Below are positions 1 through 29,341 of a stretch of 64,000 nt of DNA, one piece after another. The first letter of the stretch is position 1, and every line of letters starts with the position of its first letter. This DNA is from Gemmatimonadales bacterium. Its GTDB lineage: Bacteria > Gemmatimonadota > Gemmatimonadetes > Gemmatimonadales > JACORV01. Both the position numbers and the translations under genes were made by a program. The notes below the pieces were generated by a model that was not told the origin of the DNA, searched no databases, and worked only from the letters and a program-made list of their open reading frames with translations. Location of the stretch: the NCBI GenBank assembly GCA_049513575.1, contig JBEKVZ010000002.1:462186-526185 (forward strand), in the 5' to 3' direction.

Positions 1-342
1 AGCGCGTTCAAGCGGCCCTCCGAGGTGAAGCTCAACGAGGAAGAGTGCCTCCTCGCCCAGGGGGTGCTCTGCCTGGGAGCCGCCACCCGTGGCGGGTGCG
101 AGGCGCCCTGCATCAAGGGGAACATGCCGTGCACCGGCTGCTTCGGGCCCACCAGCCGGGTGAAGGACCAGGGCGCGAAGGCGTTGTCGGCGATCGCATC
201 CATGGTGGAGAGCAACGACGGCGCCGAGATCGAGCGTATCCTGAGCTCCATCCCCGACCCCGTCGGCACGTTGTACCGCTACTCGCTGCCAGCCTCGCTG
301 TTGCGCCGCAGGCGTCCGGCGCCTGTCGCGACCAAGGGGTGA
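1..342 (+). CDS. mvhG: [NiFe]-hydrogenase small subunit, MvhG/VhuG-like (3' part; begins before window)
   Basis: Frame open from base 1; CLLAQGVLCLGAATRGGCEAPCIKGNMPCTGCFGP is the C-terminal Fe-S Cys pattern of group 3 small subunits; large subunit and hyp genes lie downstream. Confidence 0.85.
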   Translation, partial: SAFKRPSEVKLNEEECLLAQGVLCLGAATRGGCEAPCIKGNMPCTGCFGPTSRVKDQGAKALSAIASMVESNDGAEIERILSSIPDPVGTLYRYSLPASLLRRRRPAPVATKG

Positions 343-346
343 GGAC

Positions 347-2233
347 GTGCTGAAGTCGATCGCGCTCCGGCTGATGTCGAGCTTCCTGGTGATCATCGTG
401 ATCATCAGCGCGATCTTCAGCTATGTGGGGATCCGTTTCATCGAGAACCGGGTCGTCACCGAAGCGCAGAACCGGGTCGCGGAGTCGCTGATGGCGGCCG
501 GGGAGATCTACGGGAGCGAGCTGCACGGCGTCCAGCAAGTGACGCGCCTCACGGCCGACCGGATCTTTCTCAAGGACGCGCTCAGGAGCGGCCGCGCCGG
601 GCAGGCCGCCGCCGTGCTGGGCGCCGTGCTGCGGCAGGAGCACCTCGACATCCTGGTGGTGACGGACGCGGCGGGGCGGGTGGTCTGGCGCCCGGCGAAT
701 CCGTCGCGGGTGGGGGATGCGCGGGGCGCCGATCCGCTGCTCAAGAGCGTGCTGACCCGTCGCGAGTCTGTGGCCGCGACGCAGCTCCTCTCCATCGGCG
801 ACCTGCGCCGGGAGTGCCCCGGCCTCGCGGTGCACGAGTTCGGCCCGGACTCGGCGGCGATGATGCTCGCTGCGGCCGCGCCGATCGTGGACGCGGGCCG
901 GCTGCTCGGCGCGGTCTACGGCGCCGTGCTGCTCAACGGCCGCTCCGAGCTGGTGGACAGGATCAAGCACGGCGTGTTCGAGGACGCCCAGTACCAGGGC
1001 CGGCCGGTCGGGGCCGCCACGCTGTTCCTGCACGACCTCCGGATCGCGACCAACGTCCTCAACCCTGAAGGCTCCCGTGCTCTCGGCACGCGCGCCGAGC
1101 CGGACGTGTACCGGGCGGTGGTCCTGGAGGACCGCCGTTGGGTCGCCGGGACCCTCGCGGGCGGCGAGCGCTACATCGCCGCCTACCGTCCGCTCAGGAG
1201 CGTCACGGGCGCGAACGTCGGGATGCTGGGCGTGGGACTCCTCGAGGCCCCATACCTCGATCTCAGGCGGCGCTCGACGCTCGTGTTCCTCGCGATCACG
1301 CTGACCGGCGCTGTGCTCACGATCGGCCTCTCGTACGGCCTGTCGCAGTGGCTGTCAGTACCGCTGCGCGATCTGGTGGCGGCCTCGCACCGCCTGGCAC
1401 ACGGCGACCTGAGCGCGAAGGTCCCGACGCCGGCGGTGACGGAGATCGCCGAGCTCGCCGAGAGCTTCAACGTCATGGCGGACGCGCTGCGGGCCCGTGA
1501 CGAGAAGCTCCGCGACTTCACCCGCCGCAAGATCATGGAATCGGAGCGGCTGGCGGTGATCGGGCAGCTCGCGGCCGGCGTCGCGCACGAGCTGAACAAC
1601 CCGCTGCAGGGCATCGTCGCGTACTCGCACCTCCTGCGCGAGAAGCAGGCCGGGGGTGGCGGGAACGGCACGGACGGCTGGGTGGAGAAGATCGTCACGC
1701 AGGCGGACCGCTGCTCCTCGATCGTCCGGGGCCTGCTCGATTTCGCGCGCCCCCGCACGCCGGTGATGAAGCCCACCGCGATCAACGCGCTGGTCAGCGG
1801 CTGCATCGCGCTGGTGGAGGACCAGGCGCTCTTCCACAACATCACGGTCGAGCGGCACTTCGGTGCGGACGTGCCGGAGGTTGTGGCGGATCCGTCGCTG
1901 ATGCAGCAGGTCTTCATGAACCTGATCATCAACGCGGCGGAGGCGATGCCGGACGGCGGGCGGCTCGTGGTGACCACGCGCCGCGATGCCGCGGAAGGCA
2001 TGGTCGAAGTGGAGTTCGCGGACACCGGCCACGGCATCGCCGAGGCGGACCTCGAGCGCATCTTCGACCCGTTCTTCACGACGAAGGCGGTCGGGCACGG
2101 CACCGGGCTCGGCCTGGCGATCAGCTTCGGGATCGTCAAGGAGCACCGCGGCACCATTTCGGTCGAGAGCGAGGTGGGGAAGGGGACGACGTTCGACGTC
2201 CGCCTCCCCCTGCGCGACCGGACGGAGGGTTAG
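347..2233 (+). CDS. Membrane sensor histidine kinase (TM-Cache-like-TM-HAMP-HisKA-HATPase)
   Basis: Two hydrophobic helices; H-box VAHELNNPL; N-box NLIINA; DTGHGI, FDPFFTTK, GTGLGL. Confidence 0.92.
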   Translation: MLKSIALRLMSSFLVIIVIISAIFSYVGIRFIENRVVTEAQNRVAESLMAAGEIYGSELHGVQQVTRLTADRIFLKDALRSGRAGQAAAVLGAVLRQEHLDILVVTDAAGRVVWRPANPSRVGDARGADPLLKSVLTRRESVAATQLLSIGDLRRECPGLAVHEFGPDSAAMMLAAAAPIVDAGRLLGAVYGAVLLNGRSELVDRIKHGVFEDAQYQGRPVGAATLFLHDLRIATNVLNPEGSRALGTRAEPDVYRAVVLEDRRWVAGTLAGGERYIAAYRPLRSVTGANVGMLGVGLLEAPYLDLRRRSTLVFLAITLTGAVLTIGLSYGLSQWLSVPLRDLVAASHRLAHGDLSAKVPTPAVTEIAELAESFNVMADALRARDEKLRDFTRRKIMESERLAVIGQLAAGVAHELNNPLQGIVAYSHLLREKQAGGGGNGTDGWVEKIVTQADRCSSIVRGLLDFARPRTPVMKPTAINALVSGCIALVEDQALFHNITVERHFGADVPEVVADPSLMQQVFMNLIINAAEAMPDGGRLVVTTRRDAAEGMVEVEFADTGHGIAEADLERIFDPFFTTKAVGHGTGLGLAISFGIVKEHRGTISVESEVGKGTTFDVRLPLRDRTEG

Positions 2234-2238
2234 GAACG

Positions 2239-3399
2239 GTGGAGGGGAACGCGCGGATTCTGGTCGTCGACGACGAGGAGATCGTGCTCGACTCCTGCAC
2301 CGAGATCCTGCGGGGCGAGGGGTACCAGCTCGCGACCGCCGCGGACGGGGAGCGCGGGCTGGCGCTCGTGAAGGAGTTCCGTCCGGACATCGTGGTGGTG
2401 GACCTCAAGATGCCGGGGCTCTCCGGGTTCGACGTCCTCGCACGGCTCAAGGAGTCCGACCCCACGATCGTCACCATCGTCATCACGGGGTACGCCACGG
2501 TGAGCTCGGCGGTGGAGGCGATGAAGCACGGGGCGTACGACTTCCTCCCGAAGCCGTTCACGCCGGAGGAGTTCCGGCTGATCATCCGGCGCGCCGTGGA
2601 GAAGCGTTCCCTGACCTTCGAGGCCATGGCCTTGCGCCGCGAGCGCGACCTGCTGCGGGAGCACTTCGCGGCGATCGTCTCCCACGAGCTCAAGGCGCCG
2701 CTGGCGGCCATCCAGCAGAACATCTTCGTGCTCGAGCGCCAGCTGGCTGCGGCCGCGACGCCGGACCAGCGCGAGCGGCTGGCGCGGGTGAAGGCCCGGA
2801 TGGCGGACTTGATCCAGATGGTGGACACCTGGCGGCATGGCGTGTCGATCGACATGGACGCCATCAAGGCGCGCCAGGTCCCCGTCTCGGTGCGGGTCCC
2901 GATCGACAAGGCGGTGGAGAGCGCGCTGGTCTACGCCACGCGCAAGGCGGTCACCATCGAGGTGACGGTGCCGGAGCCGGCGCCCCGGGTGCTGGGCGAC
3001 CAGGGGACGCTGACCGAGGCGGTGGTCAACATCCTCGGCAACGCCGTCAAGTTCTCGCGCGACGGCGGCCGGATCGAGGTGACCGCCGACGTGCGGGACG
3101 ATGACGTCCGCATCGCGGTCACCGATCACGGCGTGGGCATCGCGCCGGAGGAGCTGCCGCACCTGTTCGAAGCGTTCTACACCCAGCCCGGTGTCGGCGG
3201 CGAGCGCGGCTCGGGCCTCGGCCTGGCCGTGAGTCGGCGGATCGTCGAGGCGCACGGCGGGGGCATCACGGTACAGAGCACGCCGGGCCAGGGGAGCACG
3301 TTCGTGATCACGCTGCCCGCGCTCGGCGACGATGCACCCGGCGGGGAACGCCGGGAGGCTGAACCTCTGGCAGCATCTGCAAAGGACGGTCCCAGATGA
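2239..3399 (+). CDS. Hybrid REC-histidine kinase (receiver + HisKA + HATPase), cytoplasmic
   Basis: N-terminal ILVVDDE..VVVDLKMP..ITG..LPKPF; H-box VSHELKAPL; NILGNAVKF, DHGVGI, GSGLGL. Confidence 0.9.
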   Translation: MEGNARILVVDDEEIVLDSCTEILRGEGYQLATAADGERGLALVKEFRPDIVVVDLKMPGLSGFDVLARLKESDPTIVTIVITGYATVSSAVEAMKHGAYDFLPKPFTPEEFRLIIRRAVEKRSLTFEAMALRRERDLLREHFAAIVSHELKAPLAAIQQNIFVLERQLAAAATPDQRERLARVKARMADLIQMVDTWRHGVSIDMDAIKARQVPVSVRVPIDKAVESALVYATRKAVTIEVTVPEPAPRVLGDQGTLTEAVVNILGNAVKFSRDGGRIEVTADVRDDDVRIAVTDHGVGIAPEELPHLFEAFYTQPGVGGERGSGLGLAVSRRIVEAHGGGITVQSTPGQGSTFVITLPALGDDAPGGERREAEPLAASAKDGPR

Positions 3400-3818
3400 G
3401 CGAGCGCAAGCGGTTGATGATCATCGACGACGACCCCGATTTCGTCTCGGGGATCCGCGCCATTCTGGACGGCGCCGGCTACGACACCGAGGTCGCCTAC
3501 AACCCGAAGGATGGGTTCGCGGCGCTGAAGGCGCGGTCCCACGACCTGCTCCTCCTCGACATCATGATGGGGCGGGGCGCCGAGGGCGTCATGATGGCGC
3601 GCAAGCTCCGCAAGGACCCGGCGCTCAAGGATCTCCCGATCCTGATCATCACGGGGATCCGCGAGCAGATCGCGTTCATGTTCCCGGGCCAGGCGGTGCA
3701 CCCGAACTTCGTGGCGCTCAACGAGCTGATCGAAAAGCCCGTGGAGCCGGACCTCCTGCTGGAACGGGTGAAGGCGCTGCTCAAGGCGGCCGAGTCGCGC
3801 GGCCAGCCGGTGTCCTGA
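3396..3818 (+). CDS. Single-domain response regulator (REC)
   Basis: IIDDDPD, LLLLDIMM, IITG, IEKPV; ATGA overlap with upstream gene. Confidence 0.9.
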   Translation: MSERKRLMIIDDDPDFVSGIRAILDGAGYDTEVAYNPKDGFAALKARSHDLLLLDIMMGRGAEGVMMARKLRKDPALKDLPILIITGIREQIAFMFPGQAVHPNFVALNELIEKPVEPDLLLERVKALLKAAESRGQPVS

Positions 3819-3840
3819 CGACTGAGGAGGGGGAGGGCGT

Positions 3841-4404
3841 ATGTGGACGAAGCCCTCGTTCGCGGACGAGATCTCGAACGAGATGTACGCGACGGGCACG
3901 CGCGGCCTGAACTGCTGCATTCAGTGCGCGACCTGCTCGTCGGCCTGCCCGGCGGTCGAGTTCATGGATCACACGCCGCGCCGGCTCATCGGCATGATCA
4001 ACGCCGGCCTGCGGGACGACGTGCTGGCGAGCAACACGTTCTGGGTGTGCGCCTCCTGCTACGCCTGCTCGGGGGTCTGCCCGAAGGGGATCAAGCCGTC
4101 GGAGCTGATGTACGTGCTGAAGCGGTACTCGATCTGGAAGAACAAGTACCGCGATGACCTCGTGGGGCCGGAGTTCTCGCGGCGCTTCGTGAAGACCATC
4201 ATGCGCACGGGGAAGTCGTACGAGCCCGGGTACGCCCCGGCGTTCATCTTCGAGGGCGGCGTCCAGGGCATGCTGCGCGAGATGCAGTTCGGCATGAAGC
4301 TCATGGCCAAGGGCCGCATGCCGCTCATGCCGTCCCGCGTGAAGCGGGTGGACAACTTCCGGGCGATGCTGAGCCGGATCGTGCCACTGGAAGGCATCGA
4401 ATGA
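3841..4404 (+). CDS. hdrC: Heterodisulfide reductase subunit C-like 2x[4Fe-4S] protein
   Basis: CIQCATCSSACP and CASCYACSGVCP ferredoxin motifs; directly upstream of hdrB; SD GAGGAGG. Confidence 0.88.
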   Translation: MWTKPSFADEISNEMYATGTRGLNCCIQCATCSSACPAVEFMDHTPRRLIGMINAGLRDDVLASNTFWVCASCYACSGVCPKGIKPSELMYVLKRYSIWKNKYRDDLVGPEFSRRFVKTIMRTGKSYEPGYAPAFIFEGGVQGMLREMQFGMKLMAKGRMPLMPSRVKRVDNFRAMLSRIVPLEGIE

Positions 4405-5324
4405 AACGGTACGCGTACTTCCCCGGGTGCTCCGCGGAAACCGTGTCCGCGAGCTACCACCTCTCGACCATCGAGACGGGGGCCAAGCTCGGCGTGCAGT
4501 TCGAGGAGATCGAGGACTGGAACTGCTGCGGGGCCACGCCCTACACCAACATCGACGAGCTGCTGGCGCACACGCTGTGCGCCCGCAACCTCGCCATCGC
4601 CGAGCGGACCGGCCTCGACGTGGTGGCCCCGTGCAACGCGTGCTTCAAGAACCTCTACCACGCGAACCAGGACCTCAAGACGGATGCGGACCTCGCGGAG
4701 CACATGAACTTCGCGCTGGAGGCCGACGGCCTGCGGTACGGCGGGACCATCGGGGTCCACCATCTCATCCACGTGTTCGTGCGGGACGTGGGCCTCGATG
4801 CGATCAAGCAGAAGGTGACGCGCCCCCTCAAGGGCCTGAAGGTGGCGGCGTACTACGGTTGCCAGCTGGTGCGGCCCGACCGGCACGACGGCTTCGATCC
4901 GGCGGGTCCGCGGTACTTCGAGGATCTGATCGCGGTCCTCGGGGCGAAGCCGGTGGAGTTCGCGCACCGGCTCCGGTGCTGCGGCGCCTCCCTGATGATC
5001 GGGCACCGGCGCGCGGCCCTGGCCATGGTGCGCGAGCTGCTGCGCGGCGCCGCGCAGGCCCAGGCGGACGTGATCGCCACGGCCTGCCCGCTGTGCCAGC
5101 TGAACCTGGAGTGCTACCAGAAGGACGTGAACCGCGAGTTCGGGACCGCCTACGAGATCCCCGTACTCTACTTCACGCAGCTGATGGGATTGGCGATGGG
5201 GATCAGCGCGAAGAAGCTGGGCATCGGCACCGAGATGATATCGCCGAAGGCGGTGCTGGAGTGTGTGGCGCGCAAGCCGGCCGCAGCCGCGCCGGCCCAC
5301 AACGTGAAGGTGGGACAACCATGA
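4401..5324 (+). CDS. hdrB: Heterodisulfide reductase subunit B-like (two CCG domains)
   Basis: YAYFPGC, WNCCGA, PCNAC, YYGCQLVRP, RCCGA, TACPLCQ motifs. Confidence 0.92.
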   Translation: MKRYAYFPGCSAETVSASYHLSTIETGAKLGVQFEEIEDWNCCGATPYTNIDELLAHTLCARNLAIAERTGLDVVAPCNACFKNLYHANQDLKTDADLAEHMNFALEADGLRYGGTIGVHHLIHVFVRDVGLDAIKQKVTRPLKGLKVAAYYGCQLVRPDRHDGFDPAGPRYFEDLIAVLGAKPVEFAHRLRCCGASLMIGHRRAALAMVRELLRGAAQAQADVIATACPLCQLNLECYQKDVNREFGTAYEIPVLYFTQLMGLAMGISAKKLGIGTEMISPKAVLECVARKPAAAAPAHNVKVGQP

Positions 5325-6814
5325 CGCAGCCGACGACACCGGCCGCCCCGGCGGGGCGCCGGATCAGCATCGATCCGATTACCCGCCTCGAAGGTCACGG
5401 CAAGATCGAGATCTTCCTCGACGCGAAGGGCGGCGTCAGCCGCGCCTTCATGCAGGTCCCGGAGCTGCGCGGGTTCGAGAAGTTCGCGCAGGGGCGTCTG
5501 GCGGAGGACATGCCCCAGATCACGTCGCGCATCTGCGGCGTGTGCCCGACCGCGCACCACATGGCGGCGACCAAGGCCCTCGACGACCTGTACAAGGTCG
5601 AGCCGCCCCCTGCGGGGAAGGCGATCCGCGAGCTGGTCTACAACGCCTTCATGGCCGAAGACCACGCGCTGCACTTCTACTTCCTGGGCGGGCCGGACTT
5701 CGTCGTCGGCCCCATGGCGCCCGCGGCCGAGCGCAACATCCTGGGCGTCATCGCCAAGGTCGGCGTGGAGACGGGCAAGACGGTCATCGCGATGCGGCGG
5801 CGGCTGCGCGAGCTGATCGCGCTGGTCGGCGGCAAGGTCATCCATCCGGTGCTGGGCCTCCCCGGCGGCGTCGCCAAGCCGATCAAGCCCGAGGAGCAGA
5901 AGCAGTTCCAGGCTCTCGCCGCCGACGCGGTCGGCTTCGCCCAGTTCACGCTCAAGGTGTTCGAGGACGTGGTCCTCAAGAACGCCGAGTACGTGAAGCT
6001 CATCACATCCGACACCTTCACGCACCGGACCCACTACATGGGGATGGTGGACGAGAAGGACCGGCCCAACTTCTACGACGGGAAGCTTAAGGTCGTCTCG
6101 CCCGAGGGCAAAGAGATCGCGAAGTTCGCGGCGCAGCAGTACCTCGAGTACATCGCCGAGCACGTGGAGCCGTGGAGCTACATGAAGTTCTGCTACCTCA
6201 AGCCGGTGGGGTGGAACGGCTTCACGGAAGGTGCGGAGAGCGGGATCTACGCGGTGGCGCCGCTGGCGCGGCTCAACGTCGCTTCGGGGATGGCGACGCC
6301 GCTGGCGCAGCAGGCCTACGAGAAGATGTACCAGGTCCTGGGCGGCAAGCCGGTGCACCACACCCTCGGCAATCACTGGGCGCGGGTCATCGAGCTGCTG
6401 TACGCCACGGAGCGGTTGCAGGAGATCGCCGCCGACCCAGTGCTGGTGGACTCCAACGTCCGCACGCTGCCCACGGCCACGCCGCAGGAAGGCATCGGGG
6501 TCGTGGAGGCGCCGCGCGGGACGCTCATCCACCACTACACGACCGACGAGCGGGGCGTGATCAAGACGGCCAACCTCATCGTCGCGACGCAAGGCAACGC
6601 GGCGCGCATGGCGATGGGGGTGGAGAAGGCAGCTAGGGGACTGATCTCCGGCAAGGAGGTCTCCGACGGCCTGCTCAACATGGTCGAGATGGCCTTCCGC
6701 GCCTACGACCCCTGCATGGGGTGCGCGACGCACAGCCTCCTCGGCGAGATGCCGCTCGAGGTCGCCATTCGCGACGCGGATGGGCAGCTGATCCGCGTCG
6801 TGCGCCGACCCTAG
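5321..6814 (+). CDS. mvhA: [NiFe]-hydrogenase large subunit, group 3c (MvhA/VhuA-like)
   Basis: IDPITRLEGHG; L1 RICGVCPTAH; L2 RAYDPCMGCATH followed by a cleavable C-terminal extension; start ATG at 5321 overlaps hdrB stop. Confidence 0.93.
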   Translation: MTQPTTPAAPAGRRISIDPITRLEGHGKIEIFLDAKGGVSRAFMQVPELRGFEKFAQGRLAEDMPQITSRICGVCPTAHHMAATKALDDLYKVEPPPAGKAIRELVYNAFMAEDHALHFYFLGGPDFVVGPMAPAAERNILGVIAKVGVETGKTVIAMRRRLRELIALVGGKVIHPVLGLPGGVAKPIKPEEQKQFQALAADAVGFAQFTLKVFEDVVLKNAEYVKLITSDTFTHRTHYMGMVDEKDRPNFYDGKLKVVSPEGKEIAKFAAQQYLEYIAEHVEPWSYMKFCYLKPVGWNGFTEGAESGIYAVAPLARLNVASGMATPLAQQAYEKMYQVLGGKPVHHTLGNHWARVIELLYATERLQEIAADPVLVDSNVRTLPTATPQEGIGVVEAPRGTLIHHYTTDERGVIKTANLIVATQGNAARMAMGVEKAARGLISGKEVSDGLLNMVEMAFRAYDPCMGCATHSLLGEMPLEVAIRDADGQLIRVVRRP

Positions 6815-6824
6815 CGGGAAGGCG

Positions 6825-7358
6825 TTGGAAGGAGGCGCACGCGTGATGGGGCCGCCCCAGCGGATCGTCGTCGTCGGACTGGGGAATCCGCTCCTCACCG
6901 ATGACGCCGTCGGACTCCGCGCTGCCGCGCTGCTGGCCGAGCGGCTGGCCCAGGCGCCGGTGGACGTGCTCCAGAGCTCCTGGGGCGGGCTGCGCTTCAT
7001 CGACCTCCTCGCCGGGTACGAGCGCGCCATCATCGTGGACGCCATCGAATGGCGGCGCGGCCCGCCGGGGACCGTCTACCGGCTCACTCCCGACGCGGCC
7101 ATCCCGACCCTGCGGGCTGTTTCCTACCACGACGTGAGCCTCGGCACCGCCCTGGCGCTGGGGCGCTCGCTCGACATTCCGCTCCCGGTTGAGACCGTGT
7201 TTTTCGCCGTCGAGGCCCAGGACACGCACACGTTCGGGGAGGCGCTGACGCCCGCGGTCGAGGCGGCGCTCCCGGAGGTGGTACGGCGCGTGGAGGCACA
7301 GCTTATGCAATGGAACCTCCAGTGGGGGGATTCATGCACGAAGCCAGCATTGCGCTGA
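6825..7358 (+). CDS. Hydrogenase maturation protease (peptidase A31); start may be 6843/6846
   Basis: VVGLGNPLLTDDAVG, IVDA, SYHD motifs; follows large subunit. Confidence 0.88.
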   Translation: MEGGARVMGPPQRIVVVGLGNPLLTDDAVGLRAAALLAERLAQAPVDVLQSSWGGLRFIDLLAGYERAIIVDAIEWRRGPPGTVYRLTPDAAIPTLRAVSYHDVSLGTALALGRSLDIPLPVETVFFAVEAQDTHTFGEALTPAVEAALPEVVRRVEAQLMQWNLQWGDSCTKPALR

Positions 7359-7702
7359 ACCTGATCGAGGCGGTCGAGCAGCGTCTGGAGTCGCAGCCGG
7401 GGCATGTCACGGCGATCCACGTGCGCGTGGGAGAGCTGGCGGGCGTCTCCACCGAGGCGCTCGACTTCGCCTTCCAGTGCCTGTCCGCCGGCACGCCGCT
7501 GGCGAGCGCACGGCTCGTCTTCGAGGTGATCCCGCTGACGATGACGTGCGACGCCTGCGGCCGGACGAGCGGGGTCGAGGACCTGGTGTTTCGCTGCCCG
7601 GCGTGCGGCTCGGAGAACACGCGCATCTCCACGGGGCGCGAGCTCGAGGTGCGCACGCTGGAGCTCGCCGAGGAACCCGAGGTGGCCCATGCATCAAATT
7701 GA
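7334..7702 (+). CDS. hypA: Hydrogenase nickel incorporation protein HypA
   Basis: MHEASIA N-terminus; CDAC and CPAC zinc-binding motifs. Confidence 0.93.
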   Translation: MHEASIALNLIEAVEQRLESQPGHVTAIHVRVGELAGVSTEALDFAFQCLSAGTPLASARLVFEVIPLTMTCDACGRTSGVEDLVFRCPACGSENTRISTGRELEVRTLELAEEPEVAHASN

Positions 7703-8381
7703 CGTCAAGGCGGGGCTGCTCGAGCCCAACGACGCCATCGCCCGGGAGAACCGGGAGTTTCTCGCGGCGCACGGGATCTACGCCGTGGACATCATGAGCG
7801 CGCCTGGCTCGGGGAAGACGTCCCTGCTCGAGTGGATGATTCCCATCTTCGCGGAGCGCTACCGCCTTGCGGTGGTCGAGGGCGACATCGTCGGCAACGC
7901 GGACAAGGAGCGCCTCGACGGGTTCGGCGTGCCGGTCCACCAGATCAACACGGGCGCGGCGTGCCATCTCGACGCGCACATGGTGCATCCGACCCTGCAC
8001 CACGTGGCCGAGGAAGGGGCCGAGGTTCTGTTGATCGAGAACGTCGGCAACCTGGTGTGCCCCGCCGAGTTCGACCTCGGCGAGGACGACGTGATCATGC
8101 TGCTGTCGGTCACCGAGGGACACGACAAGCCGAAGAAGTACCCGCTGATGTTCCGGCGGGCGGGCCTGGTGGCGATCAACAAGCTGGATCTGCTGGACCG
8201 CACCAACTTCGACCTCCCGGGCGCGATCGCCGCGGCGCGCGACGTCCATCCCGGGGTGGCGGTGCTGACGACGTCGTGCCGCACCGGCGAGGGCATCGAC
8301 GACGTGGTCGCGTGGCTGGAGTGGCGCATCGCGGCAAAGCGGGCGGCGATGCAGCACCTGCAGGTGGGCGCCTCGCCGTGA
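7689..8381 (+). CDS. hypB: Hydrogenase nickel incorporation GTPase HypB
   Basis: SAPGSGKTS, CHLDAHM, IENVGNLVCPA, INKLD. Confidence 0.95.
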   Translation: MHQIDVKAGLLEPNDAIARENREFLAAHGIYAVDIMSAPGSGKTSLLEWMIPIFAERYRLAVVEGDIVGNADKERLDGFGVPVHQINTGAACHLDAHMVHPTLHHVAEEGAEVLLIENVGNLVCPAEFDLGEDDVIMLLSVTEGHDKPKKYPLMFRRAGLVAINKLDLLDRTNFDLPGAIAAARDVHPGVAVLTTSCRTGEGIDDVVAWLEWRIAAKRAAMQHLQVGASP

Positions 8382-10690
8382 GCGCAACGCTCGCGCAGGC
8401 GACAGGGCGGCGCGTCGCGGCGCGCATCACCGTACGGGGAGCGGTACAGGGGACGGGGTTCCGTCCCTTTGTTTTCCGCCTCGCGCAGGCGCTCGGCCTC
8501 GCGGGGTCGGTGCGGAACACGCCGTTCGGCGTGCTCATCGTCGCCGAGGGGGAGGCGGAGGCGGTGGCGGCGTTCCTCCGGCGGCTGCCGCCGGAAGCCC
8601 CGCCGGCCGCGGTCCTGCGCGGCGTGGAGGTCGAGGAGATCGCGCCGGACGGCGCCGAGCGGTTCGAGATCGAGGCGAGCGACCTGGCGGGTGAGCTGGT
8701 GGTCGCGATGCTCCCGGATCTGGCGACCTGCCCCGAGTGCCGTCAGGAGCTGTTCGACCCCGACGATCGCCGGTTCAACTACCCATTCCTCAACTGCACG
8801 GCCTGCGGGCCGCGGCTCTCCATCATCGAGGGGCTGCCGTACGACCGGCCGCTGACCGCGATGCGGCAATTCCGGATGTGTCCGGACTGCGCCGCCGAGT
8901 ACGGGGACCCGCGCGACCGCCGGTTCCACGCGCAGCCGGTCGCATGTCCACGGTGCGGGCCTCGCTTCTGGTTCGAGGGGCGCGACCCCACGGCGGGACC
9001 GTACGCGACCTATCCCCTCGAAGCGGCGGTCGCGATGCTGCGGTCGGGGCGGATCCTCGCCGTCAAGGGGATCGGCGGTTACCAGCTCCTCGTGGACGCG
9101 CGGGACGACGCCGCCGTGGCGCGCCTCAGGGCCCGCAAGGGGAGGGAGGCGAAGCCGCTCGCGGTGATGTTCCCGAGCCTCGAAACGCTGCGCCGCGTCG
9201 CGCGGGTCGGGGACGAGGAGGCGCGGCTCCTGGACTCCGCGTCGGCACCCATCCTCCTCCTGCCCCTGATCGACCGCAGCGCGATCTCCGCGGAGACGGC
9301 GCCGGGGCTTCATTCGGTGGGCGCGATGCTGCCCTACTCGCCGCTCCACCACCTGCTGCTGGCCCGGCTGAACTTCCCCGTCGTCTGCACGAGCGGGAAC
9401 TTCTCCGAGGAGCCGATGGCGATCACGGCCGAGGACGCCCGGGAGCGCCTGGGGCCCATCGCCGACGCGTTCCTGCACCATGACCGCCCGATCGTGCGGC
9501 ATGTGGACGACTCGGTCGCGCGGGTCGTGGACGGCAGCCTGCTCGTGCTGCGCCGCGCGCGCGGGTTCGCGCCGCTGCCGGTGGAGCTCACGGCGCATCT
9601 CCCGACGGTGCGGGCCCTGGGCGGCCACCTCAAGAACACGGTCGCGTGGAGCCACGGCAACCAGATCATCGCGAGCCAGCACATCGGCGACCTCGACCAC
9701 CCGCTCTCGCTCGAGGCGCTGCAGCGCACCGTGGCCGACTACGAGCGGCTCTACGGCCTGGGCCCCGTGGCCGTGGCGTGCGACCTCCATCCCGACTACG
9801 CGACCACCCGGCTGGCCGAAGCCAGCGGGTTGGAGGTGATTCGCGTGCAGCACCATCACGCGCACGTCGCGGCGGTGATGGCCGAGCACGATCTCGAAGG
9901 CGAAGTGCTGGGCGTCGCGTGGGACGGGACGGGACTCGGGACCGACGGCACGATCTGGGGCGGCGAGTTCCTGCGGGCCTCGGTCGTCGGCTACCGCCGC
10001 GTCGCGCGGTTCCTCCCCTTCTGGCTGCCCGGCGGCGAGGCGTCCGCGCGCCAGCCCTGGCGGTCGGCGCTCGGTGTGCTGCACGAGATCCACGGCGAGG
10101 GGCTGTGGGACCTCGACGTTCCGTCGGTGGAGCACGCCCGGCCGCGGCGGTCCATCCTCGAGGCTCTGTTCCGGCCGGGCGGCTACTCCGCGCGCACGTC
10201 GAGCGCGGGCCGGCTGTACGACGCGGTCGCCTCCCTGCTCGGGCTCCGCCAGGAGTCGAGCTACGAAGCCCAGGCAGCGATGCAGCTCGAGCAGATGGCG
10301 GAGCCGGGGGCGTCGGCGGGCTACCCCTTCCGTCTGCTCGAGCCGGTGGTCGCCGCGGAAAACGCGCCGGTCGAGGTGGACTGGCGTCCCGCCGTCACGG
10401 GCCTCCTCGCGGACCTCCGCCGCGGCGCGACACCTTCTGCCGCGGCCGGCCGGTTCCACCTCACGCTCGCCCAGATGATCGCCGCCGTGGCCGAGTGGCA
10501 CGGGCTCGCTCGCGTGGTGCTGTCGGGCGGGTGCTTCCAGAACGCCGCGCTCGTGACGCTGGCCGCGCGGGACCTCCGGGCGCGGGGCTTCCAGGTCTTC
10601 ACGGCCAGCCGCATCCCGCCGAACGACGGTGGGCTCGCGGTAGGGCAGGCGCTCGTGGCCGCCCATACCCTGCTCGAGCGGAGGCGCTAG
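8378..10690 (+). CDS. hypF: Carbamoyltransferase HypF
   Basis: Acylphosphatase [11 protein letters not shown]; zinc fingers CPEC/CTACGP/CPDC/CPRC; VQHHHAH; [11 protein letters not shown]. Confidence 0.95.
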
Positions 10691-10692
10691 CC

Positions 10693-10971
10693 ATGTGCCT
10701 CGGCGTGCCGGGCGAGATCCTCGAGCGCCACACCGGCCCGGGCGGCCTGCTGTACGGCACGGTCCGGTTCGGCGCGGCGGACCGGGAGGTCTGCCTGGAG
10801 TACGTCCCGGAGGCCGCGGTCGGCGACTTCGTGATCGTGCACGTGGGGCTGGCGCTCACGGTGCTGAGCCGCGAGGACGCCGAGGAAACGTTCCGTTATC
10901 TCGACGAGATGGAGGCTTCGGCCGAGCTGGGCCGCGAGGCCGATGCGCTCGAGCGCGAGGAAGTGCCGTGA
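10693..10971 (+). CDS. hypC: Hydrogenase assembly chaperone HypC
   Basis: MCLGVPG N-terminus; GDFVIVHVG. Confidence 0.95.
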
Positions 10972-12083
10972 GGTACCTGGACGAATACCGCGACGGGGCA
11001 TCGGCACAGCGCTACGCACAGACGCTGCGCGCGATCGTCACGCGGCCGTGGACGCTGATGGAGGTCTGCGGCGGCCAGACGCACTCCATCGTGCGGTACG
11101 GCATCGACGAGATGCTGCCGCCCGGCGTCACGCTGATCCACGGGCCCGGGTGCCCGGTGTGCGTGACGCCGGTCGGCATCCTGGACCGCGCCTTCCGCAT
11201 CGCGCGGCAACCGGGGGTCATCTTCGCGTCGTTCGGCGACATGCTCCGCGTGCCCGGCACCCGCGACGATCTGCTGCACGTGCGCGCCGAGGGCGGCGAC
11301 GTCCGCATCGTCTACTCGCCGCTCGACGCAGTCGCGATCGCGGAGAAGGAGCCCGAGCGGCAGGTCGTGTTTCTCGCGGTCGGCTTCGAGACAACGGCGC
11401 CCGCCAACGCGATCGCGGTGCAGCTGGCGGCGAAGAAGCGCCTCGCGAACTTCACCGTCCTGCTCGCGCAGGTGCGGGTTCCGCCCGCGCTCGAAGCGAT
11501 CCTCCAATCCCCCGACTGCCGGGTGCAGGCCTTCCTCGCCGCGGGCCACGTCTGCACGGTGATGGGGACGGCGGAGTACGACCCGCTGTGCGAGCGGTAC
11601 CGCGTGCCGGTCGTGGTGACCGGATTCGAGCCGGTGGACCTGCTGCAGGGGATCGCGATGGCAGTGCGCCAGCTGGAGGAGGGGCGCAGCGCGGTCGAGA
11701 TCCAGTACCGCCGCTCGGTGCGGCCGGAGGGGAACGCGCATGCCCGCGCCGCGATCGCGGAGGTGTTCGAGGTCGCCGACCGCGACTGGCGCGGCCTCGG
11801 CCGGATACCGCGCAGCGGGTTCGCCCTGCGCGCGAAGTACGCCGCGTTCGACGCCGAGCGGAGGTTCCCGGACTCGGAGCCGCTGGCGCCCGAGGACCCG
11901 GATTGTCTGGCCGGATTGGTGCTCCAGGGCCGCCTGCGACCGCAGGAGTGCCCGGTCTTCGGCACACGGTGCACGCCCGAGCATCCTCTCGGCGCGCCGA
12001 TGGTCTCCTCGGAGGGGGCGTGCGCGGCGTACCACCTGTACCGCCGCCGGAGGACCGCGGCGGCTGTGGCCGGAGCGGCGTGA
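10968..12083 (+). CDS. hypD: Hydrogenase formation protein HypD
   Basis: [39 protein letters not shown]. Confidence 0.95.
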
Positions 12084-13126
12084 TGGGCGAGATCATCTGC
12101 CCGGTGCCGCTCGGCGACGGCGGACGGATCCTGCTCGCGCACGGCGGCGGGGGACGGCTCACGCGCGACCTGGTCGAGCGGGTCTTCGTCCCCGCGTTCC
12201 GGAATGAGACGCTCGCCGCGCTGCACGACAGCGCGGTGCTGGAGCGGCCCGCGGGGCGGCTCGCCTTCACGACGGACTGCTTCGTCGTGCGACCGCTCTT
12301 CTTCCCCGGCGGTGACGTCGGCAAGCTCGCGGTGACCGGCACGGTCAACGACCTCGCGATGAGCGGCGCGCGTCCCCTCTACCTCAGCCTGGGGTTCATC
12401 CTCGAGGAGGGGCTGGCGGTGGACGACCTGCTGCGCGTCGTCGCGTCCATCCAGGCCGCCGCGCTCGAGGCGGCGGTCGCGGTCGTCGCCGGCGACACCA
12501 AGGTAGTGGAGCGGGGCAAGGGCGACGGGATCTTCATCACCAGCTCGGGCGTCGGCGTCGTCGTGGCGAAGCGGCCCGTTGCGCCGACCGAGGTGCGGCC
12601 GGGCGACGCGGTCCTCGTGAGCGGCCCGGTGGGCCAGCACGGCGTCGTCGTGATGGCGGTGCGCGACGGCCTGGCCTTCGCGTCGCCGATCCTGAGCGAC
12701 TGCGCCAGCGTCGCGGGCCCCGTGCTCGCGCTCCTGGAGGCGGGGCTGGACGTGCACTGCCTGCGGGACCCGACGCGCGGCGGCGTGGCCACGGTCCTGA
12801 ACGAGATCGCCACCCAGGCCCGCTGCGAGATCGCGGTGCACGAGAGCGCCATCCCCGTGGGCGAGGACGTGGCCGGGGCCTGCGAAGTGCTGGGCCTCGA
12901 TCCGCTGTACGTGGCGTGCGAGGGGCGCTTCCTGGCCTTCGTCGCGGCCGCAGAGGCGGACCGCGCGCTCGAGCTGCTCCGCTCGCGGCCGGAGACGGCC
13001 CGGGCGTCCCGCATTGGCACGGTGCGACAGGGCGGGACGCCGGGGCTGGTGGTGCTGAGGACGAAGGCGGGCGGTGACCGGGTGCTCGACCTCCTGTCGG
13101 GGGAGCAGCTGCCGAGAATCTGTTGA
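12083..13126 (+). CDS. hypE: Carbamoyl dehydratase HypE
   Basis: LAHGGGG, FTTDCFVV, GDTKVV, RDPTRGG, terminal QLPRIC. Confidence 0.95.
   Translation: MGEIICPVPLGDGGRILLAHGGGGRLTRDLVERVFVPAFRNETLAALHDSAVLERPAGRLAFTTDCFVVRPLFFPGGDVGKLAVTGTVNDLAMSGARPLYLSLGFILEEGLAVDDLLRVVASIQAAALEAAVAVVAGDTKVVERGKGDGIFITSSGVGVVVAKRPVAPTEVRPGDAVLVSGPVGQHGVVVMAVRDGLAFASPILSDCASVAGPVLALLEAGLDVHCLRDPTRGGVATVLNEIATQARCEIAVHESAIPVGEDVAGACEVLGLDPLYVACEGRFLAFVAAAEADRALELLRSRPETARASRIGTVRQGGTPGLVVLRTKAGGDRVLDLLSGEQLPRIC

Positions 13127-20195: not shown

Positions 20196-20198
<3 letters not shown>
20050..20198. repeat. Intergenic fold-back element made of GTGAGA/TCTCAC units between convergent pilT and nifJ
   Basis: Left arm GTGAG-rich, right arm CTCAC-rich; GTGAGACGGCGACGT (20073-20087) vs ACGTCGCCATCTCAC (20164-20178). 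Confidence 0.8.
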
Positions 20199-23765
<3,567 letters not shown>

Positions 23766-23890
23766 TTCAATCTCCGTGTCCGGCGCCTCTGGTCCGCGCG
23801 CAGACCTGGTTGGTGGGTATACCTCGTCCCACCCTCGGTTCCGCAAGATGCGTTCCGGAATTAGGGTGTCTTCGACTTGCAATTGTAAGC

Positions 23891-23905
23891 CGTTGTGGCA
23901 CAACG
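23891..23905. promoter_or_regulatory. Perfect 7-1-7 inverted repeat upstream of nifJ; candidate operator
   Basis: CGTTGTG-G-CACAACG next to a TACAAT hexamer on the minus strand. Confidence 0.4.
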
Positions 23906-23959
23906 AGATGATGCCGGACCGGCAGTGGGTTGCCCGCCGGCCCGGCAGCGAGGATGGGA

Positions 23960-24370
23960 CTAGGCGGTCACCGGGCTTTCCAGAATCTCCACGGCGATGT
24001 CCGGCTGGTGCGTCAGCGTGTGGTGCACGGTGCACGACTCGGCCACGCGCTTCACCGCGTCCCGGTACTTCTCCGGAATGCCCTTCGGCACCGACACGGC
24101 GACCTCGAACATCCCGATGCGGTGCGGATTAGGCGCGGGCGCGGTGAAGACCTGCACTTCCATCCCGGTGGCGTCCAGGCCGCGCGTCACCAGGAACTGC
24201 TGGACGAACAGCGCGACGCAGGTGCCGAGCGCGGCGGGCACCAGCTCGAGCGGCGTGGGGGCGGCGTCCTGGCCACCCCCCTGCGGTGGCTGGTCGACGG
24301 CCACCTTGTGGCCGCGGATGTCGGCGGTGAAGTGGACCCCGCCGTCCCAGGTCACGGTGATCGGCTTCAC
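23960..24370 (-). CDS. OsmC/Ohr family protein
   Basis: PTPLEL, LGTC and ESCTVH two-Cys pattern; GTG start overlaps trxA stop. Confidence 0.88.
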   Translation of the reverse strand: MKPITVTWDGGVHFTADIRGHKVAVDQPPQGGGQDAAPTPLELVPAALGTCVALFVQQFLVTRGLDATGMEVQVFTAPAPNPHRIGMFEVAVSVPKGIPEKYRDAVKRVAESCTVHHTLTHQPDIAVEILESPVTA

Positions 24371-27649: not shown

Positions 27650-29341
27650 CTAGGTCGTCGTGTACTCGGGCCCGCTGCCCCCCTCGGGCGGCGTGAGCCG
27701 TCCGCCCTTGGCCGAGATCGCCCCGCACTGCACGCAGTTGGGCGCGTTGACCCGCAGCTTCTTCTTCCCGCCGGCGTCCGTGGTCCATTCGTAGACGCCC
27801 GCCGGGCACATGTTGACCCACGCGGTGCCCAGCGCGTCGGGAACGTCGTCCTTCACCAGCAGGTGGCTGGGCTGCGTGTCGCGGGTGCGGTTCCCCGAAG
27901 CGTAGACGCTGGAGAGCTTGTCGAAAGTCAGCTTGCCGTCGGGTTTGGGATACGTGCGCTTCAGAATGCGGACTGGACGGTCGGCGTCGGCGTGGCTCGT
28001 GAACTGCCAGCCGGGGAAGAGCCCGCGCGTCGCCGTCATCAGGCCGGCGAGCGCCGCGCCCGTCACGAGCCCGCCGCCGAACGCCTGCCGCATGTTGCGC
28101 ACGCGGTGGAGGTCGGCGTGGATGAAGCTGCTGCGCACGGCCCGGTCGTAGCCGGCCAACGCCCCCAGTGCGGTGGGGTCGCGCGCCTCTTTGAGCACGC
28201 CGAAGATCGTTTCCGCCGCAAGCATCCCAGACCACATCGCGTAGTGGATGCCTTTGAGCGCCGGCACGTTCACGAATCCGGCGGCATCGCCGGTGAGCAG
28301 CGCACCGCGCAGGCTGAGCTGCTTGGGCAGGGCATGGAAGCCGCCTTCGGGGATCGTCTTGGCGCCCCAGCCGACCCGCGAGCCGCCCTCGAGGATCGGG
28401 CGGATCAGCGGGTGCAGCTTGAGCTGTTGGAGCAGGTCGTGCACCGAGAGCGAGGCATCGGCCCAATCGAGGCCGACGACGAGGCCGATCGAAACCTGCT
28501 TCTCCCCCAGCGGATAGGCGAAGCTGCCGCCGAACTCGCCCGCCGCGCCGCTCCACCTGAGGGGCCAGCCCATTGTGTGGATCACGCGGTCGAGCTTCTG
28601 CGGGACGTCCCAGGTTTCCTTGACGCCGAGCGCGTAGATCTGCGGGTTCCTGCCGTCGAGCCCGAAATGGTGGCTCAGGGCAGCCGCGAGGTGGCCGTTG
28701 GATCCCTCCGATAGCACCGTGGCGCGCGCGTGGATCTCCACGCCCGGCTCGTGGTTGGGGAGCGGCGTCCCGTCGCGGTCCAGACCCTTGTCCCCGGTGA
28801 GCACGCCGCGCACCGCCCCGTCGAGGACGAGCGCTTTCACGGCCGACGTCTCGTTCAGGATGGTGACGCCGAGCCCCTCGGCCTTCTCCGCGAGCCAACG
28901 GCCGATCTCGCTGATCGAAGCGACAAAGTTGCCGTGGTTTCTCATCGTGGGCGGCAGGAGCGGCGCGCGGATCGCCCCGGTCTTGGTCAACAGGTAGAGT
29001 GCCTCGCCCGGGACGGCGCAGCGGAACGGCAGCTCGCTGTCGGCGAGGCCCGGGAACAGCTTCCGGAACGCGACCGGATTGACGACGGCGCCAGAAACGA
29101 GGTGCGCGCCCGGGTACTTCCCCTTCTCGACCACGGCGATGGGGACGTCCCCGAGGCGCTCCTTCACTTCCGGCGCGCCCTCCACCAGCTGGGCGAGCCG
29201 GATGGCGCCAGCCAGGCCGGCGGGGCCGGCGCCCACGAACAGCACGCCGACCTCGATCCGGTCATCGGGCCCGGCTTCGGGGACGTGCAGGAACTCCGTG
29301 TGGTCGATTCTGGGGCGGTAGTCGCCGGGTCGTACGGTCAC
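27650..29341 (-). CDS. ETF-ubiquinone oxidoreductase / FixC-FixX-like flavoprotein
   Basis: VGAGPAGL FAD motif, GAKTIPEGG, GDAAGF, KGIHYAM, DGKLTFDKLSSV, CPAGVY, NCVQC. Confidence 0.9.
   Translation of the reverse strand: MTVRPGDYRPRIDHTEFLHVPEAGPDDRIEVGVLFVGAGPAGLAGAIRLAQLVEGAPEVKERLGDVPIAVVEKGKYPGAHLVSGAVVNPVAFRKLFPGLADSELPFRCAVPGEALYLLTKTGAIRAPLLPPTMRNHGNFVASISEIGRWLAEKAEGLGVTILNETSAVKALVLDGAVRGVLTGDKGLDRDGTPLPNHEPGVEIHARATVLSEGSNGHLAAALSHHFGLDGRNPQIYALGVKETWDVPQKLDRVIHTMGWPLRWSGAAGEFGGSFAYPLGEKQVSIGLVVGLDWADASLSVHDLLQQLKLHPLIRPILEGGSRVGWGAKTIPEGGFHALPKQLSLRGALLTGDAAGFVNVPALKGIHYAMWSGMLAAETIFGVLKEARDPTALGALAGYDRAVRSSFIHADLHRVRNMRQAFGGGLVTGAALAGLMTATRGLFPGWQFTSHADADRPVRILKRTYPKPDGKLTFDKLSSVYASGNRTRDTQPSHLLVKDDVPDALGTAWVNMCPAGVYEWTTDAGGKKKLRVNAPNCVQCGAISAKGGRLTPPEGGSGPEYTTT

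Follow-up and report, generated by a model that had tools for sequence, protein, structure and literature searches.

What does a hydrogenase of the methanogen type do in a soil bacterium, and where do its electrons go? Group 3c [NiFe] hydrogenases are among the commonest in soil and sediment metagenomes, and in methanogens the MvhAGD-HdrABC complex is an H2:CoM-S-S-CoB (the heterodisulfide of coenzymes M and B), ferredoxin oxidoreductase. Outside methanogens, to our knowledge, the acceptor of the “easy” electron of group 3c enzymes is not known. The question is raised by a 64,000-nucleotide stretch of a Gemmatimonadales genome (the window; positions 462186-526185 of contig C2 in genome G000, which comprises 3.6 Mb in 20 contigs), which we analyzed together with the 18 kb preceding it (locus L001). 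The locus holds a real, complete group 3c Mvh-Hdr system, interleaved with a conserved phosphorelay cassette and preceded by genes of an Etf/EMO branch that may provide a second outlet for its electrons.

The hydrogenase and its Hdr partners

An earlier note, made from the DNA of the window, had proposed a complete-looking Mvh-Hdr operon of mvhG, hdrC, hdrB, mvhA, a protease gene and hypABFCDE. All of these genes are present, intact and on the + strand by Pfam and NCBIfam matches, and the upstream flank completes the set, with hdrA (NCBIfam HdrA2, 825 bits) and mvhD (FlpD, 178 bits) directly before mvhG. HdrA is full-length, colinear with methanogen HdrA over 651 residues (724 bits to 8RVU, 701 to 5ODC) and aligned with 8RVU at every Cys motif, giving the FAD (flavin adenine dinucleotide) and [4Fe-4S] features of the long form; its match to the short sHdrA 6TJR covers just residues 309-579, at 169 bits. 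Against HdrBs of solved structure, HdrB reaches 170-194 bits and, against TIGR03288, 233 bits, under the equivalog cut-off of 345, and both its CCG motifs, the sites of the non-cubane clusters, are complete; HdrC, with two [4Fe-4S] motifs, scores 50-63 bits to the HdrCs of solved structure. Judged by their sequences, MvhAGD, HdrA, HdrB and HdrC retain the motifs for metal clusters and flavin that characterize MvhAGD-HdrABC in methanogens.

MvhA has the L1 motif RICGVCPTAHH, the L2 motif DPCMGCATH, and a 26-residue C-terminal extension that would be removed by the adjoining HycI-type protease. It scores 367 bits against NCBIfam VhuA and at most 183 against any other hydrogenase model. Among PDB entries its pairwise matches are the HydL of A. 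mobile (7T2R, 379 bits), three Mvh/Vhu large subunits (373 bits for 5ODC, then 330 and 329), and a group 3d Hox enzyme (307 bits), all others scoring below 155. Because HydL and MvhA tie at the top of this search, we built a tree of 108 large subunits, made up of five PDB sequences and homologs from the fetched loci. The query fell within a 97-row clade (support of 100 in the Shimodaira-Hasegawa-like approximate likelihood ratio test, SH-aLRT) of bacterial homologs retrieved with it and one metagenome-assembled genome (MAG) of an archaeon, whose members, where flanks are present, adjoin hdrA-mvhD-mvhG; HydL and Hox-3d formed a different clade, also with support of 100. A HydL or group 3d identity, suggested by the top PDB match, is ruled out by the tree and by linkage to mvhD and hdrA, and the tree and the VhuA score support the assignment to the Mvh/Vhu type, group 3c, that the earlier note had made. 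The group 3c assignment draws on NiFe-binding CxxC motifs with a cleavable tail, on greatest similarity to MvhA/VhuA among the models compared, and on a gene position beside mvhD and hdrA.

The G+C content of the window is about 70%, making spurious open reading frames (ORFs) plentiful, and we picked reading frames through domain matches (Pfam, NCBIfam) and G+C content at third codon positions (GC3). The resulting unit is 20 genes on one strand, hdrD1-etfB-etfA-hdrD2(EMO/EtfD)-hdrA-mvhD-mvhG-[HK1-HK2RR-RR-hdrC-hdrB]-mvhA-protease-hypABFCDE, of which the window carries the 3' two-thirds. Its genes are as follows, those upstream of the window with contig coordinates (C2) and the others with window coordinates.

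C2:453972-455339, + strand: hdrD1, soluble HdrB3/EtfD-like protein; upstream of the window
C2:455336-456115, + strand: etfB; upstream of the window
C2:456129-457103, + strand: etfA; upstream of the window
C2:457100-459082, + strand: hdrD2, membrane EtfD/EMO-type protein, 660 residues; upstream of the window
C2:459063-461063, + strand: hdrA, 666 residues; upstream of the window
C2:461056-461544, + strand: mvhD; upstream of the window
1-342, + strand: 3' end of mvhG, [NiFe] hydrogenase small subunit, C-terminal 113 residues (VhuG 210 bits, Oxidored_q6 77 bits)
347-2233, + strand: HK1, membrane sensor histidine kinase (domain matches)
2239-3399, + strand: HK2RR, soluble receiver-HisKA-HATPase hybrid kinase (domain matches)
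3396-3818, + strand: RR, stand-alone receiver, 140 residues (domain matches)
3841-4404, + strand: hdrC, ferredoxin-like subunit with two [4Fe-4S] (63 bits to HdrC of 8RVV)
4401-5324, + strand: hdrB (194 bits to 7BKB_B)
5321-6814, + strand: mvhA, [NiFe] hydrogenase large subunit, 497 residues, its start in an ATGA overlap with hdrB
6825-7358, + strand: HycI/HybD-type hydrogenase maturation endopeptidase (TIGR00072, 111 bits)
7310-7702, + strand: hypA (domain match)
7689-8381, + strand: hypB (domain match)
8378-10690, + strand: hypF (domain match, start codon)
10693-10971, + strand: hypC (domain match, start codon)
10968-12083, + strand: hypD (domain match, start codon)
12080-13126, + strand: hypE (domain match, start codon)

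The entire MvhG has 328 residues, its gene starting 644 bp before the window (G000 C2:461541). Between window positions 1 and 13126 gene spacing ranges from a 49-bp overlap to a 22-bp gap, with all genes on the + strand; hdrA/mvhD and mvhD/mvhG are joined by ATGA overlaps, and the stop and start codons of the upstream genes, from hdrD1 to mvhG, mostly overlap (hdrD2 overlaps etfA by 4 bp). Scans for sigma-70 promoters and terminators gave nothing usable, and within the unit they found no intergenic terminator-like site, all matches being intragenic except one before hdrD1; the strongest terminator-like hairpin of the region (8448-8469, + strand, nine pairs and then a T-run) lies inside the 5' part of hypF. 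An assembly artifact or chance ORFs are ruled out by intact frames, high GC3, and identical order in independent MAGs of two genera. Further 5' of the unit lie a CobW-like gene and genes for citrate synthase, a beta-carbonic anhydrase, and a three-subunit 2-oxoacid:ferredoxin oxidoreductase. The same flank encodes, on the - strand, a 1090-residue fusion protein that combines HEAT repeats with a TLC/MFS-like transporter domain and carries a cyclic-nucleotide-binding domain at its C terminus (L001 3053-6325, equal to G000 C2:447238-450510).

A signaling cassette between the hydrogenase subunit genes

As the earlier note had observed, some 5 kb separates the genes of the two hydrogenase subunits: from the end of mvhG (342) to the first base of mvhA (5321) the distance is 4978 bp. 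Of this separation 3.5 kb (347-3818), missing from that note's gene list, is taken up by three two-component genes. HK1, which begins 4 bp past the mvhG stop, has two transmembrane helices, a periplasmic sCache_3_3 domain, and HAMP, HisKA (H-box AHELNNPL) and HATPase domains, and has orthologs of 48-55% identity in the equivalent cassette of other phyla. RR is the best conserved of the three signaling proteins, at 91-95% identity within the genus and 66-74% across phyla. The His boxes and the receiver Asp/Thr/Lys residues are intact, and a domain scan found no output domain in either receiver protein, so that the set, having no DNA-binding output, does not conform to a classical two-component transcriptional system.

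Gene order in relatives was compared by mapping 16 proteins to 91 loci, and later to additional regions. The five genes HK1-HK2RR-RR-hdrC-hdrB stand in the same order at seven loci, in Verrucomicrobiota (L087, L110, L111, L113, L115), Chloroflexia (L112) and Acidimicrobiia (L114), and an eighth contig (L042) starts at RR. Wherever the HdrCB type of this locus was found (50-66% identity), it is preceded by the same three signaling genes. The cassette lies directly upstream of the etf genes in L110, L111 and L113, and upstream of hdrA in L087; it lies between mvhG and mvhA in the genus of the window (G001, G002, L012, L013) and in a sister genus (G014), where the locus (L093, on G014:C204) has the cassette without HK1, HK2RR starting 19 bp after mvhG. 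This sharing of gene order by the independent MAGs G001, G002, L012, L013 and G014 rules out an assembly error. We conclude that the mvhG-mvhA “split” reflects a conserved supercluster, some 15 genes in size, that has been rearranged; the new order is stable across two genera and is no insertion of unrelated genes. In at least four phyla the five genes are kept together as one unit, which in this family has been relocated to lie between mvhG and mvhA.

The embedded phosphorelay probably adjusts expression or activity to some small molecule outside the cell, and the conservation of RR together with its position directly before hdrC hints at, but falls short of demonstrating, protein-level control. 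Across four phyla the three-protein phosphorelay is a partner that evolution has kept with one type of HdrCB.

Possible outlets for the electrons

Four genes upstream of hdrA bear on where the electrons may go. HdrD2 has about five N-terminal transmembrane helices, two [4Fe-4S] motifs and a CCG domain, adjoins etfBA, and scores 241 bits to the EtfD of M. smegmatis (9OJN) with both membrane and soluble parts covered; a cytochrome-b-like membrane domain, two [4Fe-4S], CCG and adjacency to etfAB are the sequence features of EtfD/EMO. HdrD1 is soluble, has two [4Fe-4S] motifs and CCG domains, and scores 164 bits to the cytoplasmic part of 9OJN only. HdrD2 is accordingly a membrane EtfD/EMO homolog and HdrD1 a soluble version of its cytoplasmic part. 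Eight Cys of two [4Fe-4S] and four of a CCG site are invariant among 19 HdrD2 sequences, and a matching eight and four among 17 HdrD1 sequences, and because of this set we assign each protein two cubane clusters and one CCG site. Such “HdrF”/EMO proteins are encoded beside etfAB in anaerobes, as with hdrF3 (PMC2702500).

The locus is best explained, we think, as a flavin-based bifurcating or confurcating hydrogenase, which probably links H2 with ferredoxin and with a high-potential outlet, the latter being HdrBC, Etf-EMO-menaquinone, or both. MvhAG would oxidize (or make) H2, and electrons would pass through the [2Fe-2S] cluster of MvhD to the FAD of HdrA and be bifurcated there: one would go uphill to ferredoxin, into a pool common to pyruvate:ferredoxin oxidoreductase (PFOR) and the nearby 2-oxoacid:ferredoxin oxidoreductase; the other would go downhill to HdrC-HdrB, reducing some thiol/disulfide, and/or through HdrD1, EtfAB and EMO to menaquinone. 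In the absence of oxygen the whole may operate backward, as a confurcating sink that evolves H2. The cluster thereby offers a concrete candidate wiring, from HdrA through an HdrB3-like protein, Etf and EMO to menaquinone, beside HdrCB.

That these genes form a single system is supported by the recurrence of hdrD1-etfBA-hdrD2-hdrA-mvhDGA in Acidobacteriota, Acidimicrobiia, Chloroflexia, Planctomycetota and Verrucomicrobiota. Besides the layout with the cassette, two others emerged from the synteny comparison. In the commonest, hdrC-hdrB-hdrA-mvhD-mvhG-mvhA-protease, HdrC and HdrB are 31-47% identical to those of this locus. The other, hdrD1-etfB-etfA-hdrD2-hdrA-mvhD-mvhG-mvhA, which has hdrCB nearby at some loci and not at others, is found in Acidobacteriota, Acidimicrobiia, Chloroflexia and Planctomycetota, and in a permuted form in Verrucomicrobiota. 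Several loci of this second layout have no hdrCB within the flanks examined, leaving HdrA there with no other visible high-potential outlet.

Several observations weigh against a single bifurcating system with an Etf-EMO outlet. In pairwise search MvhA matches HydL (7T2R, 379 bits) as well as it matches MvhA. HdrD1 and HdrD2 each retain one four-Cys CCG site only, and are without the CxxC of EtfD. EtfB scores 77 bits to the non-bifurcating Etf 1O94 and 67 to the bifurcating 5OL2, and its FAD/AMP-site motif, QAIDDLDGVVAP, fits neither the bifurcating nor the non-bifurcating type. Three Acidobacteriota loci (L027, L032, L034) carry tandem hdrA genes, in the order etfA-hdrD-like-hdrA and then canonical hdrC-hdrB-hdrA-mvhD-mvhG-mvhA, and because the etf-hdrD genes there have an hdrA of their own, the two modules can be separate enzymes. 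The mechanism is, moreover, deduced from sequence, and electrons may flow in either direction.

The main alternative is that two independent neighbors share regulation and are coupled neither physically nor electronically: a canonical MvhADG-HdrABC acting on a soluble or protein disulfide, and an ordinary EtfAB-EMO with HdrD1 carrying electrons from acyl-CoA to menaquinone. Stand-alone EtfAB-EMO units exist in syntrophs and mycobacteria (PMC2702500; 9OJN; bioRxiv 10.1101/2024.08.04.606487), the full HdrCB with intact CCG motifs means that no other outlet is needed here, and the separate hdrA of the etf module in the three tandem loci fits two enzymes well. Set against this, the etf/hdrD genes are joined to hdrA-mvhDGA by overlapping codons, the two sets recur together in at least five phyla, sometimes with no hdrCB in the flanks examined, and the genome has housekeeping EtfA and ETF-QO elsewhere. 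The second EtfA lies outside the cluster and the canonical ETF-QO at 27650-29341 of the window (- strand), so that the genome has an ETF-QO alongside the EtfD/EMO-type enzyme of the hydrogenase cluster; because of these copies, the cluster's Etf and EMO are probably dedicated paralogs. We regard two uncoupled enzymes as a serious possibility, though an unlikely one.

A bolder extension of the single-system reading takes the set of about 15 genes (phosphorelay, HdrCB, HdrD1, EtfAB, EMO, HdrA and MvhDGA), conserved in Gemmatimonadales, Verrucomicrobiota, Chloroflexia and Acidimicrobiia, to encode one membrane-docked, signal-controlled supercomplex that would bifurcate H2 electrons to ferredoxin and menaquinone. 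RR, always encoded directly before hdrC, would act post-translationally on the HdrCB branch and choose between the disulfide and quinone outlets. We offer this tentatively and consider it doubtful; if true, it would identify the high-potential acceptor still missing for Mvh-Hdr enzymes of bacteria, and two-component systems would gain a new mode of control, exerted at the level of the enzyme.

Very improbable, in our judgment, is a sulfur-oxidizing system of the type II sHdr kind (shdrC1B1A-B3-etfAB-emo) that recruited a hydrogenase, in which the Hdr part would oxidize protein-bound sulfane sulfur and reduce no disulfide. HdrC, HdrB, a fused HdrB3-like protein, EtfAB and EMO do mirror the type II shdr definition (PMC11094781), but HdrA is of the full-length, 666-residue bifurcating type, far closer to methanogen HdrA (724 bits) than to sHdrA 6TJR (169 bits), MvhD and a hydrogenase are foreign to sHdr systems, and the tightly packed cluster leaves no room for lbpA, tusA or dsrE. 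None of these three was found among the upstream flanking ORFs of at least 130 residues that were scanned, smaller ORFs falling outside the scan. We rejected membership of type II sHdr on the methanogen-type HdrA and on finding no shdrH, LbpA or sulfur-transferase genes in or beside the cluster. It is scarcely credible that the hydrogenase serves the embedded two-component system as a sensor of H2, in the manner of HupUV-HoxJ, and is not an energy-converting enzyme: the kinase genes do lie between two hydrogenase subunit genes, but MvhA retains its C-terminal extension and its own protease, both of which sensory hydrogenases lack, and groups with Hdr-linked enzymes, while HK1 has a periplasmic Cache sensor of its own and the cassette lies outside mvhGA, adjoining hdrCB, in other phyla.

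For the favored reading, a bifurcating or confurcating hydrogenase, the rest of the genome gives a metabolic setting. The earlier note had placed a PFOR at 20-24 kb, and a NifJ-type enzyme is indeed encoded there.

20196-24035, - strand: NifJ-type pyruvate:ferredoxin oxidoreductase (TIGR02176, 1789 bits against a cut-off of 911)

PFOR is likely a partner through the ferredoxin pool, which it supplies together with the second 2-oxoacid:ferredoxin oxidoreductase, about 15 kb upstream. The earlier note had gone further and proposed a ferredoxin-based anaerobic H2 metabolism; the ferredoxin-linked part is reasonable, but a strictly anaerobic metabolism does not fit the COX1-family oxidases and the canonical ETF-QO. 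Because the genome carries COX1-family oxidase genes (three full-length and one short partial match), the organism looks facultative and not strictly anaerobic. Within Gemmatimonadota, the locus is further evidence that a soil genus equipped with oxygen reductases has a facultative H2 metabolism linked to ferredoxin.

A second [NiFe] hydrogenase is encoded at G000 C1:63878-65170 (- strand), with a group 3b-like large subunit (ShyA, 240 bits) that stops exactly at the His of DPCISCAVH and has no C-terminal extension. The in-frame TGA codons reported for it were considered as selenocysteine codons and rejected; most simply they are the natural stop that follows the terminal His, read through, the protein having no C-terminal extension. 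A CCG-domain protein is encoded near this hydrogenase (C1:68696-70303).

Distribution and comparison with known systems

The host is a member of the Gemmatimonadales, in line with the Gemmatimonadota origin proposed earlier: the two closest named MvhA records are from uncultured Gemmatimonadales MAGs (91% and 88% identity), and these, L012 and L013, are identical to G007 and G008, both placed in the window's own Genome Taxonomy Database (GTDB) genus. An MvhA ortholog is present in 11 of 12 genomes of this genus and in a second genus of the family. Across a Gemmatimonadota sample, 18 of 301 genomes had a match at E <= 1e-120, 15 of them at 55% identity or more (about 5%); counted by genus, 13 of 127 had one. 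The ortholog is therefore a minority trait in the phylum and routine in the genus.

The enzyme is not rare, with MvhA homologs in at least 596 stretches of species-representative genomes from many phyla; the best 80 of these, at 66-91% identity, span Acidobacteriota, Verrucomicrobiota, Chloroflexota, Elusimicrobiota, Ignavibacteriota, Planctomycetota, Actinomycetota and others. Nor is it new to the phylum, since a 2024 survey of marine Gemmatimonadota reported MvhADG group 3c hydrogenases with HdrABC (PMC11316326). In the tree, Gemmatimonadales MvhA of this type is nested in a mostly Acidobacteriota clade, and other members of the family or order (G006, G013, G038) carry a distinct, deep-branching MvhA type, which together point to lateral acquisition. 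Three MvhA homologs in other Gemmatimonadota have one in-frame TGA in the alignment (G047:C34:5051-6520, G056:C254:4136-5599, G302:C22:1998-3434), which may mark a [NiFeSe] variant or else the normal end of the protein, ahead of the C-terminal tail.

Neither the enzyme family nor its occurrence in the phylum is new, then, and the extended Etf/EMO wiring, a predicted one, is widespread. New here are the conserved phosphorelay-hdrCB cassette and the finding that it has been relocated to between mvhG and mvhA; our literature searches turned up no paper describing either the Mvh-HdrA-Etf-EMO cluster or the kinase-hdrCB cassette, and no biochemical study of the extended system.

Among known systems, the MvhAGD-HdrABC of hydrogenotrophic methanogens (5ODC, 8RVU) shares all six subunits and the cofactor motifs with this locus, with bit scores of 701-724 for HdrA, 373 for MvhA, 170-194 for HdrB and 50-63 for HdrC, and with MvhD and MvhG matching Vhu models. 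The present locus differs in its extra HdrD1, EtfAB and EMO genes, its embedded phosphorelay, its separated mvhG and mvhA and, it seems, in a bacterial host without evident CoM/CoB chemistry, unlike methanogens. The large subunit of the A. mobile NiFe-HydABCSL (7T2R), the top pairwise PDB match, nevertheless groups with 3d Hox in the tree, and its partner is the Bfu (HydABC) module, in contrast to HdrA and MvhD here.

The Etf/EMO branch resembles the EtfD/EMO enzymes (M. smegmatis 9OJN; “HdrF” of Desulfobacterium autotrophicum), with which HdrD2 shares the membrane domain, two [4Fe-4S], CCG and adjacency to etfBA; HdrD2 differs from EtfD in that its first CCG-like domain has lost every Cys and its second the CxxC, and in being encoded inside a hydrogenase operon. 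Type II sHdr (shdrC1B1AHB3-etfAB-emo; PMC11094781) likewise combines EtfAB and EMO with HdrCB and with a fused HdrC/HdrB-like protein that has a single cluster site, but has a short sHdrA (about 350 residues), a lipoate-binding protein, sulfur transferases and no hydrogenase.

Bacterial hdrCBA-mvhDGA operons, the commonest form among the 80 loci and the form found in G006, G013 and G038, encode the same enzyme family with the protease downstream, but their HdrC and HdrB are of the less similar kind (31-47% identity), they have neither kinase cassette nor etf/EMO genes, and their MvhA is a separate deep lineage. The hdrD-etfBA-EMO-hdrA-mvhDGA clusters of Acidobacteriota, Verrucomicrobiota, Chloroflexia and Acidimicrobiia have the same gene set at 45-76% identity; in the last three the same cassette is carried too, placed upstream of etf, whereas here it lies between mvhG and mvhA.

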